Origin: a virus
Length of the DNA: 64,000 bases
Virus record (IMG/VR): IMGVR_UViG_3300025168_000033
Coordinates: 64,001 to 128,000 of that record
Direction: 5' to 3' (one strand)
Shown here: positions 33,610-64,000 of the stretch, piece after piece
Numbering within the stretch: position 1 is the stretch's first letter
Layout of the letters: each line of letters starts with the position of its first letter
Notes under the pieces: model-generated
Databases searched by the model: none
What the model saw: only the letters and a program-made list of their open reading frames with translations
Told to the model about the DNA's origin: nothing
Translations under genes and position numbers: made by a program

Positions 33610-33960
33610 TTAAAAGAATTTCTTACCCATAGAAGAACCTAATGCAGCTCCAACTAATCGTGAAGTTAATAGATCGTAAAATACACCAGATTTAATTCCT
33701 AATGCTTTAGCAATCATTTTACCTACAGATTTTCCTAATGCAAATCCAGTAAGTCCACCTAGTAACGATCCAAAGATACCTTCATTGGTAAGCTCATGTT
33801 CCAATTGTTCCAGAGTCATTTCACTTTCAATAAATCTTTGATATGCCTGTTCAACCAGTAACTCTTCTTCGGCTGTAATTCCCTCAGTAAGATTTTCCTT
33901 GAACGATGGAATTAAATCTAATTCTTTATCTTCATTAATTAATTCTTGAAATGTTTTCAT
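33610..33960 (-). CDS. Putative packaged membrane-active (glycine-zipper) protein with an acidic propeptide
   Basis: MKTFQELINE leader; acidic residues 1-60; TNE/GIFGSLLGGLTGFALG...LVGAALG; GATATATAA at 33977-33986. Confidence 0.6.
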   Translation of the reverse strand: MKTFQELINEDKELDLIPSFKENLTEGITAEEELLVEQAYQRFIESEMTLEQLEHELTNEGIFGSLLGGLTGFALGKSVGKMIAKALGIKSGVFYDLLTSRLVGAALGSSMGKKFF

Positions 33961-55562: not shown

Positions 55563-57341
55563 TTAAAATGATTTTTTTACATCAGCTTTACGCTGTCTTG
55601 TAATTTGTGAATTGATATCTTCAATAATCACATCCTTGATTATTACATTCAATGAGCTAAATTCTGCATCACTAGCAGTATCTTCAAAATAAACACTATT
55701 TCTATCTGACCAACCACCACGTATAATTGGAAATTCATTTTCACCAATGATTATATCATTAAATTCATCAAGTCCTAAAGACGGATCTTCACCTTTAGCT
55801 ACCGGTATTTTTTCAACTATTTCCTCTTTAATTGAAGTCAATCTATTTACTTTAAATGATTTCTTCCAGTAGTATCCATTTGCAATTGCCTCTTCATTTT
55901 CTTGGGATACAAATTTAACATTAACAGAATCAACACCAGAAACTCCTTCAAGTATTTCAATAATATCTGACTTTGGAATTTTATCTCGCCTTTTAACATT
56001 AACAAAATATTCACCGAGCCTTGCAACAATATCCGCCTTTAATACCGATTCATCCGCAGTATCAAATATTCTTAAATAAATATTAAGCAAATATCTTTTA
56101 ACTATTGGATCCTGTATTTTAACTTCTGTAGTTACAATTTGTCTTCCACTTTTTTGAAGAACTTTTTTAAGCGCAGATTTTTCATCAGCATCAATATAAA
56201 AGTTATCTACGTTTGTAGAAAAATATTCTGAACTTGCATCAAGTTTCTTTTTAATATTAGGAATCAAGAACAAATAAATAATATTGTCATCATCAAGATA
56301 TTCATCATCAAATGTAGTATAAGCATCTATAAATGAAAAGGAATCATACCGTGATAAAAAGTGAATATAATTACGCGGGTGTGCGAGAACTAATGACCTA
56401 GAATTTGATCCAGCTATAAGCCTTGTTAAATCTAAATCTTCACCGTCAGATCCGAGCAAGAATTTTTCTTCAACCGACACAAACATTACTTCATTTAAAT
56501 CGATTTCTTCACCTAAAATTCCAGTTGCATCATCCAAAAATTCCCATTCAATTGTAGTTGCCTTTGAACTTATAATTCCAATAGCACCAGCTGAAATAAT
56601 ATATTCAATTTTTATAGTAGCACCAGAAGGAGGAATAGTCCCGTAATCTTCATTGCCAAAATAAACATCAATTCCAGCAGTAATAGAAGTTTTTACAATT
56701 ACCGCTTTATCACCTTTATTCATATCATATAATGATTCTACAATATCATATTTTTCACCATTAACATAAACAAAAACATGTTCATTTTCAATTTCACCAT
56801 TCCCACGAATAAAAACATTAAATGATTGTAATTCATCACCAGTACTAATTCTATTTTGACTTTCTAATTTTCCTTGAATAGCCTTTAAAGATAATTTTTG
56901 TGATGAATTTTTATCCCATCTAATTCTCTCAGAATCTAACATAATCAAATATTCCTGACCATTTGTTTTGTTATTTATTGATGTGAAATTATTAATAAAG
57001 AAAAAGTTTGATTCTATATCCGAACTTGCCCCTGGTTTTAATTTAAGTCCTAGCATTCCTTGAGCAGAAATAGCTCTTGTCGGATTATGACCACTTAATC
57101 TAGCCATCCCATAAATAGAATCAGCTTTACTAGCTTTAAAAATATTTAATTCTGTTATAGAATCTTCAATATATAAAAGAATTAAATCTACATATTCACT
57201 TAATACTTGAAGTATTTGTCCATATGCAGACGAAGGCGAAAATACTTCACCTGTTTGTCTATATTTATTTACTAAATATTGTAAAGATTGATTTTTTAAT
57301 TCACTAACCTTTACTTTTGCTTTATCTAAAAATCCAGCCAT
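55563..57341 (-). CDS. gp6: Baseplate wedge protein (T4 gp6 / P2 gpJ-like)
   Basis: SIYGMARLSGHNP.RAISA, VYFGNEDYGTIP, IEYIISAGAIG, GSDGED. Confidence 0.85.
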   Translation of the reverse strand: MAGFLDKAKVKVSELKNQSLQYLVNKYRQTGEVFSPSSAYGQILQVLSEYVDLILLYIEDSITELNIFKASKADSIYGMARLSGHNPTRAISAQGMLGLKLKPGASSDIESNFFFINNFTSINNKTNGQEYLIMLDSERIRWDKNSSQKLSLKAIQGKLESQNRISTGDELQSFNVFIRGNGEIENEHVFVYVNGEKYDIVESLYDMNKGDKAVIVKTSITAGIDVYFGNEDYGTIPPSGATIKIEYIISAGAIGIISSKATTIEWEFLDDATGILGEEIDLNEVMFVSVEEKFLLGSDGEDLDLTRLIAGSNSRSLVLAHPRNYIHFLSRYDSFSFIDAYTTFDDEYLDDDNIIYLFLIPNIKKKLDASSEYFSTNVDNFYIDADEKSALKKVLQKSGRQIVTTEVKIQDPIVKRYLLNIYLRIFDTADESVLKADIVARLGEYFVNVKRRDKIPKSDIIEILEGVSGVDSVNVKFVSQENEEAIANGYYWKKSFKVNRLTSIKEEIVEKIPVAKGEDPSLGLDEFNDIIIGENEFPIIRGGWSDRNSVYFEDTASDAEFSSLNVIIKDVIIEDINSQITRQRKADVKKSF

Positions 57342-57349
57342 CTCTTTAA

Positions 57350-57712
57350 TTATTTTATTGCTAGTCCAAGTAGTTTAGCACCGTTTATTGCTATATCTAT
57401 TACAGCAATATCTTGAAAATTTATTTCTTCTACTGTTGCATATATTTCAACATCATAGTTAACTCTATATGAACAATATTTATTTATTTGTCGCATTGCC
57501 TCGGCTTCTAATTCAGGGCCAGTCTTACCAAAACTCCATAAATAAGTATCTAAAGAAGCTCCATAATCCGGATCACCCATAACCGATCCTTTTGGTGTAA
57601 GAAGAACCATTTCAATTTGTTGTAGAAATAAATCTAGCTCTTCTGAAATTTCTGCTCGACCTTCTTCATAAGTAGGATCCGTTGAATTACGTAAGTAAAT
57701 ATCTACAGCCAT
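57350..57712 (-). CDS. gp25: Baseplate wedge subunit gp25-like
   Basis: IEMVLLTPKGSVMGDPDYGASL motif. Confidence 0.85.
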   Translation of the reverse strand: MAVDIYLRNSTDPTYEEGRAEISEELDLFLQQIEMVLLTPKGSVMGDPDYGASLDTYLWSFGKTGPELEAEAMRQINKYCSYRVNYDVEIYATVEEINFQDIAVIDIAINGAKLLGLAIK

Positions 57713-57725
57713 TTTTATTTATATT

Positions 57726-58475
57726 TTATTTACCGCCAGTCATTACAAACCAGTCCATTCCTTCATCATTTTTCAATTCTTCTTCAAGCTTTTCCAGTTC
57801 TTCAGAACCTTCTTCTTTATATGAATCAAAATTAATTGTAATTCCACCAGGCAATTTGAAATCAAATGCACCTAACATTCTAGCTAATTGAGTTTTACTC
57901 TTAGCTACACAATATCTATAGAATATTTCATCATCCATCAAAAATTCTAAAGGAACTTTATTATAAACCTGAAGTACCATGTCTGTCTGTGGTGTTTCAC
58001 CTAAAATTACAAGGTCTCTAGTAAGTCTGCTAAAATTATAAGAAATTGGATGATACAAAATATGTCTGCTCAAATCTATAAATGATTCTTGCATTACATA
58101 TTCCATTAATGCTTCAGTTGAATTTGAAATATCACTTACATCTTTAAATAATGCCTTTTCTAATGAAAAATCTGCCATATTACTAAATGGTGATGCAGAT
58201 CCTCCGCCTTGGCCATTAGTTTGTGAAATTGAATTTACTGAATAAATACAACTCGGTAATGTAATAGTCCTGTATTTTGTAAAATTGGAATCGCTAAGCT
58301 GTGATTTTTTTATAATATAATATCGTTCTTCAACGGCTTCTTCATATTTCTTGTAGATCCATTTTTCCGCATATTTTAATATTCTTTCAATCTCGGTTTT
58401 TGGCACATTAAATGGAAGAGAACATCCAACTGTAATCTCATCCTGTATTTCTTTTATAAATTCATCTTTAAGCAT
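57726..58475 (-). CDS. gp13: Neck protein (T4 gp13-like)
   Basis: C-terminal LPGGITIN....EG.EELEKLEEEL typical of gp13. Confidence 0.75.
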   Translation of the reverse strand: MLKDEFIKEIQDEITVGCSLPFNVPKTEIERILKYAEKWIYKKYEEAVEERYYIIKKSQLSDSNFTKYRTITLPSCIYSVNSISQTNGQGGGSASPFSNMADFSLEKALFKDVSDISNSTEALMEYVMQESFIDLSRHILYHPISYNFSRLTRDLVILGETPQTDMVLQVYNKVPLEFLMDDEIFYRYCVAKSKTQLARMLGAFDFKLPGGITINFDSYKEEGSEELEKLEEELKNDEGMDWFVMTGGK

Positions 58476-58476
58476 A

Positions 58477-59790
58477 TTAGTATACTTTTAATTTTGTTGG
58501 TTTTATCTTTGTATATTCAACAACTTTTACATTGCTTTTAAGTGAAGCACTATCGCTAATATTTCCTTCTCTAAAAATACCGCCATTCATAGTTCCATTG
58601 AATATTGTTTCCTTACCGTTAACATAACAATCAAAAATATCTACAGTGGAATTGCAATATGAATTTTTAAGTTTTGAATTTTTAATTTCTGTATTTGCAT
58701 AAATATTGTTTACTTCTATATTAGAATTAATTACAGTACATTTATATAAATTACATTTATTTAATACTGAATCATAAATTTCTGAATCAACAACTTCAAT
58801 ATCTCTTAGATTTAATGATTTAAATTTTGCATCCTTGATTTGCATCCTAGATAAAAATGTATCATAATTAATAGAGCCTGTTTTTAAATTGCTATTAACT
58901 AATATACAAAAAATTTTATCTTTAATTTTTGGCCAATGAGTTTTTAATACCTGCTCATTATCATTAAGATCGACTGTTAATTTTAATTCTGGAAATTCCT
59001 TTTTGAATTTCATCGGTGATTCATAACCTATTAAAACATCACGTAAATCATCAAGAATTAATTCTAATTTAATTCTATTTTTTTCAGTATATTCATTAGA
59101 ATTTAAAGTTGATGCTAAACTTATCATATAATAGTCTACACAATCTAATGCCTCATTTATTTTCTTTTCATATTTTTCACCACCAATATAGTTAAATCCT
59201 ATTTGATTAGTCAATATGCCAGTATAATCAATTCCGTACAAATTACTATTAGGAAGTTTATATCTAGTAGAATCTATAGTTTTTATATTATCAACAATTT
59301 TATTTACAGGTACAATATGATACATCGAACGCACAAATGGAGAGTCCTTCTGTAGTTCAAATTTTGACCATATAAGACTCTCATCAAAATTCAATATGTA
59401 CCTTAATCTATCTATATTTGATACATCAGGGATCAACTGTGAACCTTCTGCAACACTTAATTTGACTCTAAGAAATGTTTTAGGATCTGTATAACCAAAT
59501 TCACGTATTTTTTCAAATACTTTAATAATTGTTAATCTAGCAGTTTGATAATCTAGATTGCCTGTTATTAATTGTACGTATGGATTTAAAAATGCATTAT
59601 TGAATTTCAATTTATATGTGTAATCATCACATATTATATTGTCTTCGTTATCTTTAATTATTTCTTTGTTAAGATGATCCTTTAGAATTTGTACTGTTTT
59701 ATCAACGCCATAATAAGAAAAGAATTCAAATTTTAATTGAATTTCAAACTGATTATAAACTTTGCTATATTTTACAGGATCAAATGACAT
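58477..59790 (-). CDS. Degenerate amidoligase (COOH-NH2 ligase)-like protein with a C-terminal beta-helix
   Basis: QLKFEFFS, QLITG, GYTDPKTFLRVKLS and QIGFNYIGG map to amidoligase motifs with catalytic residues substituted; C-terminal I..S repeats; GATATATAA at 59809-59818. Confidence 0.55.
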   Translation of the reverse strand: MSFDPVKYSKVYNQFEIQLKFEFFSYYGVDKTVQILKDHLNKEIIKDNEDNIICDDYTYKLKFNNAFLNPYVQLITGNLDYQTARLTIIKVFEKIREFGYTDPKTFLRVKLSVAEGSQLIPDVSNIDRLRYILNFDESLIWSKFELQKDSPFVRSMYHIVPVNKIVDNIKTIDSTRYKLPNSNLYGIDYTGILTNQIGFNYIGGEKYEKKINEALDCVDYYMISLASTLNSNEYTEKNRIKLELILDDLRDVLIGYESPMKFKKEFPELKLTVDLNDNEQVLKTHWPKIKDKIFCILVNSNLKTGSINYDTFLSRMQIKDAKFKSLNLRDIEVVDSEIYDSVLNKCNLYKCTVINSNIEVNNIYANTEIKNSKLKNSYCNSTVDIFDCYVNGKETIFNGTMNGGIFREGNISDSASLKSNVKVVEYTKIKPTKLKVY

Positions 59791-59838
59791 GGATATATTA
59801 CGTTTAAGTTATATATCTACTTTGCTAATTGATGAATT

Positions 59839-61317
59839 TTACTTTACCTTGATTCCGTATGTTTTATCAGACTTAGCTAAGGCTGTATCGTATTTTCCAT
59901 CAAACCCGCTTACAACAAAAGTTTTTTGTGGATTGACAACGACTCCTATTTTTTCCATCAATTCCCTATTAATAAGCATAGGAGTAGATTTAGATGAACG
60001 ATCAACAACGCTAAAATGCATTTTACTATATGATATTCCTCTAAATTTAATATCAAGTTCTATTATAGGACGTTTTGTAACCGTATCACCTACTTCGGCA
60101 TTAGCGTAACCAACAATTTTTGATTTCATTTTTTTATTTCCAGCAGACCAATTTAAATAGCCATTTTTTTCTGACATTTTATCCGCATGAACTGATGACG
60201 ATTTAGTACCGTTTCCACTATCAAATTTAGCAACATATTCACCAAATCCAGTAAGATTAACAACTTCCATATATCCTATTTCAGTAACATTGACAGACCA
60301 ATTAGATTTATCTTTTATGAAATCTATAATATCTTGTAATATAGATTTTCCAATAACTTTTTTAATTCCTTTAGTCCCAGGAGAAGCATTTACTTCAAGT
60401 ATATAATTCTTTTTAGTTTTATCATCAACAATAATATCAACACCACACCAATGACATCCCATAGCATCTGCAGCCTTAACTGCTAAATTAATTTGTTCTT
60501 CAGTTAATTTTACATTTTCAACAGATCCACCAAGTGAATGATTAGTTCTAAAATCTTTTTTGTCTCCTCTATTACGTCGCATATATCCAATGATTTTAAC
60601 ATTGTCTTTATTGTTTCCGTGATAGTCAAATCTTTTAGTTAAGACCTGAATTCTAATATCGTAATCCGAATCAATTTTTTCTTGAATTAAAGTTTCAGTA
60701 TCAGAAAGTTTCCACATTGTCTGTAAAACAGATTTAAGCGATCCTTGTGAATCAATAATAGAAACACCTATTCCTTGAGATCCTGAAAGAGTCTTTAAAA
60801 TTATAGGAAATTTTCCACCTATTTTTTTAATTGCATCATCTAATGAATCTATACTAGGAACTAATGCCGTTCTAGGCGTCGGTAATAAATGCTGCTCTAG
60901 TTTTTGTGCAGTTAAATATTTATTTTCACAATCCAGGATTGAAGATAATGAATTAATGCAGAAGAATCCATTACTTTCAAATAATGATAGAATTCCACGA
61001 GTATATGTGTTTTTTACAACACCACGTCTAGCTATTATAACAGTATTTTCTTTATTAATAACAAATCCTTTTGATTCACCTTTATTTGTTAGCGTAATAT
61101 TTCCATCATCATCTGGATCACTAATAGTACAGTCTTTTAAGCAAAATAAAAATCCGTTCATTCCAGAATTTACAGCCTTTTCAATTAAAAACTGTGGTGT
61201 ATCTTGTGAATCTGGATCTACTGGCGTATTTGTCATTACAACAAGATTTAATTTATTACCTAGCTGAACTGCTTCAGTTAGCATATCATCAAATCTCTTG
61301 AACCTTATATTTTGCAT
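59839..61317 (-). CDS. rimK: RimK-family ATP-grasp ligase fused to a RimK-associated retropepsin-like protease domain, with CTS-like leader
   Basis: CENKY, PTPRT, PIILKTLSGSQGIGV, IQEKI, DIR, FRTNHSLGG, GVDI, LEVNASPG; C-terminal AKFDSGNG...LINR; leader MQNIRFKRFDDMLTEA. Confidence 0.88.
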   Translation of the reverse strand: MQNIRFKRFDDMLTEAVQLGNKLNLVVMTNTPVDPDSQDTPQFLIEKAVNSGMNGFLFCLKDCTISDPDDDGNITLTNKGESKGFVINKENTVIIARRGVVKNTYTRGILSLFESNGFFCINSLSSILDCENKYLTAQKLEQHLLPTPRTALVPSIDSLDDAIKKIGGKFPIILKTLSGSQGIGVSIIDSQGSLKSVLQTMWKLSDTETLIQEKIDSDYDIRIQVLTKRFDYHGNNKDNVKIIGYMRRNRGDKKDFRTNHSLGGSVENVKLTEEQINLAVKAADAMGCHWCGVDIIVDDKTKKNYILEVNASPGTKGIKKVIGKSILQDIIDFIKDKSNWSVNVTEIGYMEVVNLTGFGEYVAKFDSGNGTKSSSVHADKMSEKNGYLNWSAGNKKMKSKIVGYANAEVGDTVTKRPIIELDIKFRGISYSKMHFSVVDRSSKSTPMLINRELMEKIGVVVNPQKTFVVSGFDGKYDTALAKSDKTYGIKVK

Positions 61318-61334
61318 GTGAATACTTATTTTAG

Positions 61335-61344
61335 TTATTTATCT
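61335..61344 (-). promoter_or_regulatory. T4-late-like promoter motif AGATAAATAA
   Basis: Upstream of rimK; further copies at 62558-62567 and 63609-63618. Confidence 0.6.
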
Positions 61345-61349
61345 AAATT

Positions 61350-61378
61350 AAAAATGGAGGAAACTTAATTCCTCCATT
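61350..61378 (-). terminator. Rho-independent terminator after the S1 gene
   Basis: AATGGAGGAA / TTCCTCCATT stem running into a T-tract on the minus strand. Confidence 0.8.
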
Positions 61379-61382
61379 GATT

Positions 61383-62525
61383 CTATAATTTAAAAAATAG
61401 CTTTTTTGATTCTTTATCTATTCGATACAGATCGACTGTTATATCATCACCCTGTTCGAGTTCAATATTAAGACCTTCATATTCAGATTTATGAAGCAGT
61501 CCTGTTATTTTAGGTTCTAGTTCAACAAATAATCCGAATCGAGTTATATTTCTAATTTTACCAGTAACGCTACTAGGAACTTTATATCGTTTTTCAATAT
61601 CATCCCAAGGATCAAGTTCTTCAATTATTTCTTTTTGAGTAAGAACAATTCTAAATGCATCTACAACCTCTTTAATTTTAAATTCTATTGAATCTCCTGG
61701 CTTGATACTTCTACTATTAAATTCTTCAAATGATTTCGAATCTAATTCAGATTTATGAATTAATCCAGTAAGACAACTATCAAATTCTACAAAAATACCT
61801 ATCTTTGATGCGCCTGTTACAAATCCAGTTTTAGTCTCACCTTGAACGAGATTTGCTGCAGCTTCAGGAACCTGAGTTTTTAGAAATGCTCTATGTGAAA
61901 CTACAATATAATTTTTACCTGAATCATAATTGATAGGACATACATAAATATCTTGTCCTAATAAAGATTCAAAGTTTGTTAATTTATTCATACCACCTTG
62001 TGATCCAGGCATAAATACTTCAATACCTCCTATATCTAGAAAATATCCACCGTAAACTAGGGTTTTAACTTTTGCAGGATATGCAAAATTAGCACCAATA
62101 TTAGATTTTATTTCTTCAAACCTACGTTTCTTAATACCGTCAGTATAGGATCCTACAATATTATAATTTTTTGATTTTTGCTTATTTGAAACTTCTTTTA
62201 ATAAGACTTCTATTGAATCACCTTCATTAAGATCCTCAATAAATTCTGGACTTTCTTTTGATAAATCTAGATATGCTGATTCTCTCCAGTTAATGTCTAC
62301 TTCTAAATAGCCATTACTCTTTTTTACTATTGTTCCTTGTGTAATTGTTTTGCTAGAAGGTTTTTTGAAATCTTTGCCTTCCCAGTGAGATGTTAATGTG
62401 TCGTAATATTCTTGTGCATAATCTTCTTTTGAAAGAATTTTTTCACCATTAGATGTTATTACTGTTGAGGTTTTTGTTGACCAATCGAAATTATCAATTG
62501 GTGATACATGATTGTACGCTGACAT
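61383..62525 (-). CDS. rpsA: Ribosomal protein S1 homologue (about four S1/OB domains)
   Basis: GGYFLDIGGIEVFMPGSQ, IVVSHRAFL, GIFVEF..LTGLIHKSEL, DPW, FGLFVELEPKITGLLHKSE. Confidence 0.85.
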   Translation of the reverse strand: MSAYNHVSPIDNFDWSTKTSTVITSNGEKILSKEDYAQEYYDTLTSHWEGKDFKKPSSKTITQGTIVKKSNGYLEVDINWRESAYLDLSKESPEFIEDLNEGDSIEVLLKEVSNKQKSKNYNIVGSYTDGIKKRRFEEIKSNIGANFAYPAKVKTLVYGGYFLDIGGIEVFMPGSQGGMNKLTNFESLLGQDIYVCPINYDSGKNYIVVSHRAFLKTQVPEAAANLVQGETKTGFVTGASKIGIFVEFDSCLTGLIHKSELDSKSFEEFNSRSIKPGDSIEFKIKEVVDAFRIVLTQKEIIEELDPWDDIEKRYKVPSSVTGKIRNITRFGLFVELEPKITGLLHKSEYEGLNIELEQGDDITVDLYRIDKESKKLFFKL

Positions 62526-62573
62526 TTTTTTAAGTTTAAGTAAATAATTAATATAGGTTATATATCCCTAGTA

Positions 62574-63026
62574 TTATTTGAATTTCTTTATAAGATCTGT
62601 AATATCAATATGAACACCTACCATTCTTACCGGCTTATCATCATCCCATTCACAAACACAACCACGACACAAAATATCTACAGTATGTCCTAATTTATGT
62701 TTATATCTAGATATAACTTCAAATTTAATTTTTCCTTTTGATTTTACGTGATCTGCAAATTGTTGAAGAGCATCAGTTAAATCATCCGAATGAATTAATT
62801 TCATCCATGTACTGGTTGAATTTTCTAATTCACTGTCGCTATATCCTAATTGATTTTTCCATGAGGGACTTAAATATTCATAGTTAGTAACAATATTCCA
62901 ATCCCAGTATCCATCTAAAGTATTATCAAGTACATCGGTTAATGTCTGATTTTCGCTAGCAAGATTCAACTCTATTTTATTTAAAGTATCTGTTAGCTCT
63001 TTTATTTTTTTTAAATTATCTGGCAT
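62574..63026 (-). CDS. Stand-alone PAS/PAC domain protein
   Basis: DGYWDWNI..YLSPSWKNQLGY..WMKLIHSDD..RYKHKLG..RG..PVRMVGVHIDIT. Confidence 0.9.
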   Translation of the reverse strand: MPDNLKKIKELTDTLNKIELNLASENQTLTDVLDNTLDGYWDWNIVTNYEYLSPSWKNQLGYSDSELENSTSTWMKLIHSDDLTDALQQFADHVKSKGKIKFEVISRYKHKLGHTVDILCRGCVCEWDDDKPVRMVGVHIDITDLIKKFK

Positions 63027-63028
63027 AT

Positions 63029-63388
63029 TTAAAAAATTTTATCTTTAAAAAAGACTATAATAACCCAAAGAACCTGTACTGCAATTCCAACTCCAACAAC
63101 TAATTGCCATTTAGATTTTTGATGATACAATTCATCTTTTGCTTCTTTCATTTGAGATGGCGACCATACTTCATTAACCTTTTCCTTGAATTCTTTAAGT
63201 TCGTTTACTTCTCGTTCAGTTGTCTTAAAATCTGATAAAGTCTCATTAATTTCTTTAAATCTTTTGTCCATATCAGCACGAAGTCGTTCCTGTCCTGTAG
63301 TCAATTGCTCTAATTGAGCGAGCACTAATCGTCCATATTCAGACCATCCGTTTTTTGGAGTATTTTTATTTTCGTTAGACATAATCAT
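63029..63388 (-). CDS. Coiled-coil protein with a C-terminal transmembrane helix (holin/XhlA-like?)
   Basis: LVVGVGIAVQVLWVIIVFF TM segment. Confidence 0.55.
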   Translation of the reverse strand: MIMSNENKNTPKNGWSEYGRLVLAQLEQLTTGQERLRADMDKRFKEINETLSDFKTTEREVNELKEFKEKVNEVWSPSQMKEAKDELYHQKSKWQLVVGVGIAVQVLWVIIVFFKDKIF

Positions 63389-63600
63389 TGAGATGAAAGC
63401 AATGCAAGTAACCTATTACACATATTCTCATAATGTTTAATTTTTGTACCGGGTTTTTCAAGTGTTGCAATTATCTTCATTTCAGCATGAAGTAAACTTT
63501 GAATATCATTAAGAATTTCCATATATCTAGGAGAATCATTTGGATAGTTTTCTAACGTATCCAACAATATTCTTAGATTTATGATATTTTCACTTGCCAT
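63385..63600 (-). CDS. Hypothetical protein
   Basis: 71-aa ORF with a GATATATAA motif upstream. Confidence 0.55.
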   Translation of the reverse strand: MASENIINLRILLDTLENYPNDSPRYMEILNDIQSLLHAEMKIIATLEKPGTKIKHYENMCNRLLALLSSQ

Positions 63601-63623
63601 AATATGATTTATATATCTAAAGT

Positions 63624-63866
63624 TTATGTTATAACTCCTATACTGCTTCCAGTACCAGCACCTACTTGAGCTACTGCTGATCCTGTAGTAGCAACAACTG
63701 TTAATATCGGTACTGTTATTGTTTGTGATCTTATATATGCATCTATTGCGGTTGCTAAATCTGCAGCAACTTTGTCAATGGCAGCTTTTGATTTTGTATC
63801 TGGTGCATCAAGACTACCTAATGCTGCTGCTATTTGAAGTTCGAATGGTTTTTTTATTAGTGGCAT
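63624..63866 (-). CDS. Small putative structural protein (possibly spike-associated)
   Basis: LATAIDAYIRSQTITV..G.G.G pattern; follows a partial gene. Confidence 0.5.
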   Translation of the reverse strand: MPLIKKPFELQIAAALGSLDAPDTKSKAAIDKVAADLATAIDAYIRSQTITVPILTVVATTGSAVAQVGAGTGSSIGVIT

Positions 63867-63894
63867 AATTATATGATTTAATTTAATTTAATTA

Positions 63895-64000
63895 TTATGA
63901 TTTTGATGGACCGTCGACAGAAACAGTATTACTTCTTGTCTGTGGTATTTCTTTTGAATCTATAGAAGTAAGTGCAGGTGTAATTGGTGCTACTGCAGCC
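63895..64000 (-). CDS. 3' end of a gene entering from the right edge (..AAVAPITPALTSIDSKEIPQTRSNTVSVDGPSKS*)
   Basis: Open frame from the window end to TAA at 63897-63895. Confidence 0.5.
   Translation of the reverse strand, partial: AAVAPITPALTSIDSKEIPQTRSNTVSVDGPSKS

Follow-up and report, generated by a model that had tools for sequence, protein, structure and literature searches.

Adjacent S1 and RimK-RimB genes in a large T4-like phage: recent neighbours with possibly separate functions in translation

When two genes related to translation lie side by side in a phage genome, do they work together or have they simply become neighbours? The question is raised by a 64,000-nucleotide (nt) stretch of the IMG/VR virus record IMGVR_UViG_3300025168_000033 (bases 39446-103445 of a 108,411-bp viral contig, G000; hereafter the window), in which a gene for a homologue of ribosomal protein S1 (bS1) is followed by one for a RimK-type ATP-grasp ligase. 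A sequence-only reading of this locus had proposed that the pair forms a ribosome-reprogramming module. We give roughly even odds (about 50%) to a different view, that S1 and RimK, the latter fused to a RimB-like protease, serve two independent translation-directed functions and have been neighbours only since the RimK gene moved, with S1 acting late and RimK-RimB delivered by the virion. This view builds on the domain make-up, conservation, synteny, promoter, terminator and leader patterns and lack of Shine-Dalgarno sequences seen in the analysis, and from these we infer that S1 binds the ribosome, that RimK-RimB is packaged, cleaved and injected, and what its substrate is. The two genes are as follows.

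61383..62525, minus strand: S1 homologue, 380 amino acids (aa), four OB domains (D1-D4 of bS1), with an N-terminal extension and helix
59839..61317, minus strand: RimK-RimB fusion, 492 aa, comprising a leader (aa 1-15), a pre-ATP-grasp region, the ATP-grasp domain and a RimB-like retropepsin domain

The adjacency is true of this window but is not a conserved pairing. Single-protein scans of IMG/VR returned no close relatives, which were found by alignment-based searches; these place the S1 family on >540 IMG/VR contigs, and synteny was surveyed in the 80 best loci with 10-kb flanks. In all 80, S1 is directly followed by a homologue of the 437-aa protein that is encoded downstream of the pair here, then by gp13 and gp25, with gp6 after them in the 77 whose sequence reaches it, while RimK lies within 10 kb of S1 in none of them (0/80). 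Both genes are present in G001 (294 kb, 91% complete), G002 (246 kb, with terminal repeats), G003 and G004, where 68-77 kb separate S1 from a downstream RimK that directly follows the gp23 region (the distance in G001 being measured around the circle). In the present genome this ancestral slot, behind the p163 homologue, is vacant. RimK is found between S1 and the 437-aa gene in four places only, namely the window, L006 (63% identity), the P0010 contig (59%) and L119 (56%, with an intervening 91-aa ORF (open reading frame)), and in L118, whose RimK is 62% identical, it occupies a third site, upstream of a homologue of a 1593-aa fibre-like gene. Because RimK has three sites and is missing from the vicinity of S1 in 80 of 80 related loci, we regard the adjacency, on gene order, as recent and confined to one small subclade, and RimK as behaving like a movable late-region cassette.

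These data make it unlikely that S1, RimK-RimB and perhaps the 437-aa protein, which has an amidoligase fold, form a true functional module that acts jointly on the 30S platform and whose adjacency is selected. Such a module would fit two observations: all large contigs of the RimK-bearing clades (G000, G001-G004) have both S1 and RimK-RimB, and four contigs have RimK in the same position. Against it stand the 80 loci without RimK near S1 and the third site of the 62%-identical relative; moreover, synteny extends over the entire neck and baseplate cluster, which makes conserved gene order by itself a poor guide to function.

The signals around the two genes point the same way.

62558..62566, minus strand: late-promoter-like motif GATATATAA, 32 nt upstream of the S1 start
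61353..61378, minus strand: between S1 and RimK, an intrinsic-terminator-like hairpin (10 pairs, then a T run)
61335..61343, minus strand: late-promoter-like motif GATAAATAA, 17 nt upstream of the RimK start
59809..59817, minus strand: late-promoter-like motif GATATATAA, 18 nt upstream of the 437-aa gene

As had been claimed, S1 and RimK each have their own GATAWATAA motif. The motif occurs 18 times in the window, every time on the coding strand (8.6 expected), and on the whole 108-kb contig 29 copies lie on the coding strand and 0 on the other; 23 of the 29 stand at most 60 nt upstream of an ORF start, with an intergenic share of the contig of ~5%. Many of the genes behind these copies are structural or bear a leader of the kind described below. 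The T4 late promoter is TATAAATA, and by analogy we read GATAWATAA as a late promoter. It is also found 37-52 nt upstream of S1 in L005, L006, L008 and L119, its place before S1 being conserved in other clades. The hairpin is the sole terminator-like site in positions 57000-64000, and an equivalent arrangement of hairpin and motif precedes RimK in L006 and L119. Because each gene has its own promoter-like motif and a terminator-like site lies between them, S1 and RimK are, on these patterns, separate transcription units, which further counts against a joint module. With no adjacency in the 80 loci, 68-77 kb between the genes in G001-G004 and a terminator in between, the proposal of a single S1-RimK module was not borne out. 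The accompanying claim that phage mRNA leaders are A-rich without Shine-Dalgarno sequences was upheld: a Shine-Dalgarno core (GGAG, GAGG or AGGA) at -20 to -4 was found in 0 of 101 ORFs, compared with 9.4% of random windows, and the leaders are 55% A and 6% G, with A peaking at -14 and -3.

What, then, might each gene do by itself? The S1 ORF lies where it had been placed, and Pfam (87.7 bits for S1, 34.8 for S1_2) and AlphaFold2 agree on a homologue with about four OB domains. The AlphaFold2 model (mean predicted local distance difference test score, pLDDT, of 84) has a helix at residues 35-48 and, after it, OB barrels that span 60-126, 149-210, 231-296 and 318-379. The closest solved structure is E. 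coli bS1 (phmmer against PDB, E 7e-36; phage residues 157-375 on E. coli 113-339), and other bS1 chains align from residue ~51 on. When a profile of 50 homologues was compared with the first 201 residues of E. coli bS1 using hhalign (probability 97.9%), phage residues 42-236 fell on E. coli 7-199, with D1 on D1 and D2 on D2. The phage protein is a shortened bS1, made up of the N-terminal helix and D1-D4, without D5 and D6. In the alignment of the 50 homologues, an N-terminal extension of ~30 aa is specific to the phage family.

Structure prediction also indicates that the N-terminal segment has been kept, with the helix at 35-48 predicted to dock on ribosomal protein uS2. We modelled S1 residues 1-135 together with uS2 of Flavobacterium johnsoniae, as an assumed stand-in for the host, in three runs and with three controls. 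The complex scored an ipSAE of 0.76 (runs 0.74-0.76) and the best of the three controls 0.00; at least 76% of contacts were common to the three runs and the partner pLDDT was at least 74. In calibration, 58 of the 80 solved complexes reached the mark, as did 2 of the 110 mismatched pairs. The predicted interface comprises the helix (residues 34-47) and D1, including W80, R81 and E82, which are invariant in the 50 homologues. A similar complex, that of E. coli S1 with uS2, has already been solved, so that this predicted docking denotes likeness to a known binding mode, not proof of binding. Outside the predicted interface, the extension holds an FDW motif (aa 13-15, window 62480-62487) that E. 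coli bS1 lacks and that the model resolves poorly; its W is invariant, and F and D nearly so.

A role for S1 away from the ribosome, as a general RNA-binding factor (chaperone, mRNA protector or cofactor of a phage nuclease or polymerase), seems to us rather improbable. Host S1 has a part of this kind for T4 RegB and for Q-beta replicase. S1 domains are widespread in non-ribosomal RNA-binding proteins, a caveat raised in PMC6375957 and PMC7162821, and the phage protein lacks D5 and D6, has the family-specific extension with FDW and has no close cellular donor: a search of GTDB genomes for a bS1 donor or a clue to the host returned only S1 proteins of at most 33% identity, from unrelated phyla. 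On the other side, D1 and D2, the ribosome-binding half of bS1, pair in register with those of E. coli; the N-terminal helix has been retained, and docking on uS2 is predicted for it where the controls score 0.00; and the interface residues do not vary.

The second gene proved to hold more than the RimK ATP-grasp ligase that had been reported beside S1. The ORF has the expected coordinates and a well-conserved RimK-type domain, and it additionally has a C-terminal RimB-like domain and an N-terminal leader.

61273..61317, minus strand: RimK leader MQNIRFKRFDDMLTE, codons 1-15, with predicted cleavage after E15, followed by A
60316..60927, minus strand: RimK ATP-grasp domain, aa 131-334 (PF08443, 117 bits against a cut-off of 21)
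59908..60285, minus strand: RimB-like retropepsin domain, aa ~345-470, with the motif KFDSGNG (D366)

The ATP-grasp domain aligns with the Pseudomonas and E. coli RimK structures 7qyr, 5zct and 4iwx (E 1e-20 to 1e-24), and its nucleotide- and metal-binding motifs are invariant in 47 homologues. The RimB-like domain, in the C-terminal 150 residues, matches PF05618 weakly (20.5 bits, below the cut-off of 27) and, in PDB, the RimB structure 9g58_A with E 1e-4 over residues 396-467, and several homologues have a precomputed PF05618 match. In the motif KFD(S/T)GNG, residues K364, F365, D366, G368, N369 and G370 are invariant in the 47 homologues. By sequence the motif is the counterpart of the catalytic D-T-G of RimB (D31 in Pseudomonas RimB), a motif whose role has been reported, and RimB is known as a retropepsin-like protease that trims glutamate runs of at least 6 and stimulates RimK (PMC11957791). 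In metagenomes, S1 and RimK-RimB each have hundreds of homologues of 45-60% identity.

The leader suggests when RimK-RimB might act. Its consensus in the family is YFxxFLNE|AK, with E15 invariant in 47 of 47 homologues, and the homologue in Pelagibacter phage Mosig has the N-terminus ...FKNYLEE|A. Leaders of this type head 12-13 of the 58 minus-strand ORFs in the window, where ~1 would be expected from the frequency of the motif inside proteins (~12-fold enrichment). T4 internal proteins enter the capsid via a conserved capsid-targeting sequence (PMC3012670), which the RimK leader resembles in sequence. The homologue in Yersinia phage YerA41, a 'ribosomal protein modification protein' with 35% identity, was associated with particles when analysed by LC-MS/MS (PMC7354516). 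A protease that might cut such leaders is encoded on the same contig.

G000 C1:35178-33358: prohead protease, 47% identical to the PF03420 (Peptidase_S77) protein of L001, adjoined by the portal and gp23 genes

S1 was searched for a packaging leader as well, and no hydrophobic-x-Glu site was found in its first 30 residues. Because of this, and because the family FDWxxYE segment has neither Leu nor Ile at P3, we judged S1 from its sequence to be untagged. With a leader on RimK and none on S1, the two proteins are predicted to act at opposite ends of the infection cycle, and a packaging-type leader on RimK only is another feature at odds with a joint module.

Leaders of the type MKxxxSFE(D/Q)F(L/V)NE|(A/S) stand on about a dozen unrelated ORFs of the window (1681-33960) and on more in the rest of the contig, most of them 13-23 nt behind a GATAWATAA motif. 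Judging from their N-termini, they look like a very large group of capsid-targeted cargo proteins. The T4 capsid-targeting sequence is MKTYQEFIAE, and the ORF at 33610-33960 begins with the similar MKTFQELINE. In L001 (5965-9527), a 217-kb relative, the gp23 homologue starts MYLLNE and the next two ORFs also have LNE sites near their N-termini, which fits hydrophobic-N-E as the prohead protease cleavage site of this lineage.

RimK-RimB might also have its substrate elsewhere than on the ribosome, glutamylating phage proteins (capsid-internal or tagged cargo) or making free poly-alpha-glutamate, with the protease setting the chain length. We consider this doubtful. The gene always lies among late or structural genes, it would on sequence be co-packaged with many other tagged proteins, and several phage ORFs, among them that of the tagged 159-aa protein (1681-2160), have acidic tails. 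A search among the phage ORFs for the Glu-Glu type C-terminus of bS6, which would mark a RimK substrate, nevertheless gave none that was convincing, and capsids are not known to contain ATP. RimK does make free poly-alpha-glutamate, stimulated by RimB (PMC11957791), but bS6 is the sole characterised protein substrate of the RimK family (PMC7343187, PMC11957791).

Several possible companions of RimK were considered. A linkage to RegA, as in Mosig and the 2008 GOS contigs, found no support: in L001 and L003, RimK overlaps a 162-163-aa ORF for which Pfam gave no match. A PF01818 search gave no match in G000, nor in control genomes, and is uninformative on RegA. A 116-aa ORF was likewise dismissed as a companion, the 116-aa ORFs of L006 and L001 being unrelated to each other. 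In YerA41 (L088, MW570730.1 24478-35623), an ORF with a LysW-like annotation stands a few genes away from that for the RimK-like particle protein. RimK-family LysX enzymes act on LysW, a carrier protein, and this neighbour hints that some phage RimK homologues may have their own carrier protein as substrate.

On the reading of two independent functions, S1 would be a fixed, late-expressed gene of this large T4-like lineage, whose product, a shortened bS1 (D1-D4), would dock on the 30S subunit via uS2 with its N-terminal helix and D1 and supplement or displace host bS1, favouring A-rich phage leaders without Shine-Dalgarno sequences. RimK-RimB would be a cassette complete in itself. The T4-type leader would bring its product into the prohead core, the S77-type prohead protease would cleave it behind Glu15, and it would be injected along with the DNA. 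In the new host it would add and trim alpha-linked glutamates on a target that, by analogy with the family, may be the bS6 C-terminus. The background that had been given for bS6 is accurate: the phylum-specific C-terminal helix of F. johnsoniae bS6 contacts the last nucleotides of 16S ribosomal RNA (rRNA) (PMC7797042). Of the proposed ribosome reprogramming, the bS1 homologue, the RimK domain and the lack of Shine-Dalgarno sequences stand, and the joint module is not supported.

Several points weigh against independent functions with a virion-delivered RimK-RimB. The docking score of S1 on uS2 may reflect the model's memory of the solved E. coli complex. The RimK leader of the window (MLTE|A) deviates from the family consensus (FLNE|A), and packaging, cleavage and injection are deduced from a sequence motif together with proteomics on a 35%-identical homologue; that virion preparation of YerA41 scored 63 proteins, many of them enzymes (PMC7354516). 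Further, S1 and RimK are both kept in every large relative of the RimK-bearing clades, and RimK has landed exactly between S1 and the amidoligase-fold gene in at least four contigs, so that the two could still cooperate in trans.

The constant downstream neighbour of S1 bears on this last point.

58477..59790, minus strand: 437-aa protein with a glutamine-synthetase-like (Amidoligase_2-type) fold and a C-terminal beta-helix

Pfam gave no match for the window protein itself, and 7 of 30 family members match PF12224 (Amidoligase_2; best E 3e-7), with Atlas pointing likewise. Its AlphaFold2 model (pLDDT 90.7) consists of a glutamine-synthetase-like N-terminal domain and a C-terminal beta-helix, and it was aligned by VIA-align with glutamine synthetase 8oow_A (Z 11.2, root-mean-square deviation 4.2 over 197 residues) and with Dop (Z 8.7); the Foldseek fold match had an E of 1.6e-4. 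We scored the Amidoligase_2 family motifs GxExE, ELxTG, HxNxS and EFRxxGG. In the window protein they read KFEFF, QLITG, LRVKLS and GFNYIGG, and because all four are degenerate the protein is probably a pseudo-enzyme. Intact motifs are confined to a clade whose S1 is 38-41% identical to that of the window, and motifs are degenerate in the window, in L006 and in the clade with 45-50% S1 identity. The RimK-RimB family was found in 6 of 6 records of the degenerate-motif clades and in 0 of 6 fragments of the intact-motif clade, fragments that reach 79-110 kb downstream of S1; two of these six have a weak, different ATP-grasp ORF. This complementary pattern is suggestive of one ligase having replaced the other, although it rests on one or two evolutionary events and several of the relatives are fragments. 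PTm1 ORF-171 was rejected as a homologue of the 437-aa protein (hhalign probability 0.2%). In L059 (11191-13347), one uninterrupted ORF of 719 aa covers both the 437-aa homologue and gp13, as could result from a fusion or an assembly error.

A constant S1 neighbour with a carboxylate-amine ligase fold, its motifs intact where RimK-RimB was not found and degenerate where it was, would fit a joint module in which one ligase replaced the other, but the pattern stems from one or two events. A more elaborate scheme would have the phage seize the ribosome of a Bacteroidota host in two stages. Injected RimK-RimB would, within moments of infection, glutamylate host bS6 on its phylum-specific C-terminal helix, a helix that rests on the sequestered 16S rRNA 3' tail; S1, made later, would then dock on uS2 and control mRNA selection, and the degenerate amidoligase-fold gene would be a relic of an older ligase replaced by RimK-RimB. 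We hold this full sequence of events to be very unlikely as stated.

The surroundings of the locus suggest what kind of phage carries it. CheckV estimates the contig at 37% completeness, by which the full genome probably far exceeds 200 kb; its GC content is ~29% and nearly every gene is on the minus strand.

Downstream of the S1/RimK pair, in order: the 437-aa ORF, a gp13-like neck protein, a gp25-like sheath initiator and a gp6-like baseplate wedge protein

Head genes on the same contig include gp2, a T4-type portal, the S77-type prohead protease and gp23. The GenBank relatives of gp6 form a narrow set, namely the huge phages of Al-Shayeb et al., Lak phages of Prevotella, Sphingomonas phage PAU and, further, phages of Tenacibaculum, Chryseobacterium and Flavobacterium; the nearest GenBank relatives of S1 are the same huge phages and Lak phages. 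Because of these relatives and the total lack of Shine-Dalgarno sequences, the host of the phage is likely in Bacteroidota. No transfer RNA genes were found in the window. Just upstream of S1, positions 62574-63026 encode a stand-alone 150-aa PAS_3 domain protein (E 1.8e-15) without an output domain; L006 has an unrelated 231-aa ORF in this position.

This lineage, which is abundant in aquatic metagenomes, bears on how ribosomes are redirected by phages whose hosts do without Shine-Dalgarno pairing, and it provides two separately testable tools: a minimal four-domain S1 with a uS2 anchor, and a single-chain writer and eraser of glutamylation that is apparently addressed to the capsid. The recent, incidental nature of the adjacency keeps the S1-RimK pair from being catalogued as a conserved operon. 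Several of the components have precedents. Phage rpS1 has been published (PMC6375957, PMC7162821, PMC13157829), including putative rpS1 in huge phages that rarely have Shine-Dalgarno sequences (Al-Shayeb et al. 2020, PMC7162821), as have phage RimK with DUF785 in marine T4-like contigs (Monier et al. 2008, PMC2530865) and hybrid RimB-RimK enzymes (PMC7343187, PMC11957791). In this literature on phage rpS1, RimK and RimB-RimK, we met no description of a capsid-targeting-type leader on a phage RimK-RimB, of a fixed S1 slot beside an amidoligase-fold gene or of RimK movement among late-region sites.

Compared with bS1 and the rpS1 of huge phages, the window protein shares tandem S1/OB domains, the alignment of D1-D4, the predicted placement of the helix and D1 on uS2 and a genome without Shine-Dalgarno sequences. 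It differs in having four domains, against six in E. coli bS1, and an extension of ~30 aa with FDW, in occupying a fixed neck/baseplate slot behind a late-type promoter and in that no close cellular homologue was found.

RimK-RimB resembles the Pseudomonas RimK and RimB proteins (rimABK) and the published hybrids in its ATP-grasp domain with all motifs and its retropepsin-like D-T/S-G, joined in one chain as in the hybrids. Unlike these, it is phage-encoded, its protease domain is C-terminal, it bears a capsid-targeting-type leader and it has no RimA-like partner. The phage RimKs described before (PMC2530865, PHROG 2599 and those of Mosig, Melnitz and YerA41) belong to the same family, with a C-terminal DUF785/PF05618 domain and T4-like genomes, and that of YerA41 is particle-associated; identity to the isolates Pelagibacter phage Mosig, Methylophilales phage Melnitz and Yersinia phage YerA41 is 33-35%, and in contrast to them the window gene has moved beside S1.

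The 437-aa protein shares its fold with Amidoligase_2 and other glutamine-synthetase-fold ligases (GS, PafA/Dop, YbdK), and its relatives in another clade keep the motifs and hit PF12224, whereas in the window all four motifs are degenerate and a pentapeptide-like beta-helix is fused at the C-terminus.

Lastly, the internal proteins of T4 and Alt are targeted to the capsid, processed by gp21 and injected. The likeness to the present system lies in a short leader that ends in (L/I/F)-x-E followed by A or S and is common to many unrelated late genes, and in a T4-type prohead protease in the genome. The modification would be glutamylation instead of ADP-ribosylation, packaging is here predicted and there are far more tagged genes than in T4. 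If packaging is true, RimK-RimB would be an injected host-modifying enzyme with a component of translation as its target, much as T4 Alt has RNA polymerase.

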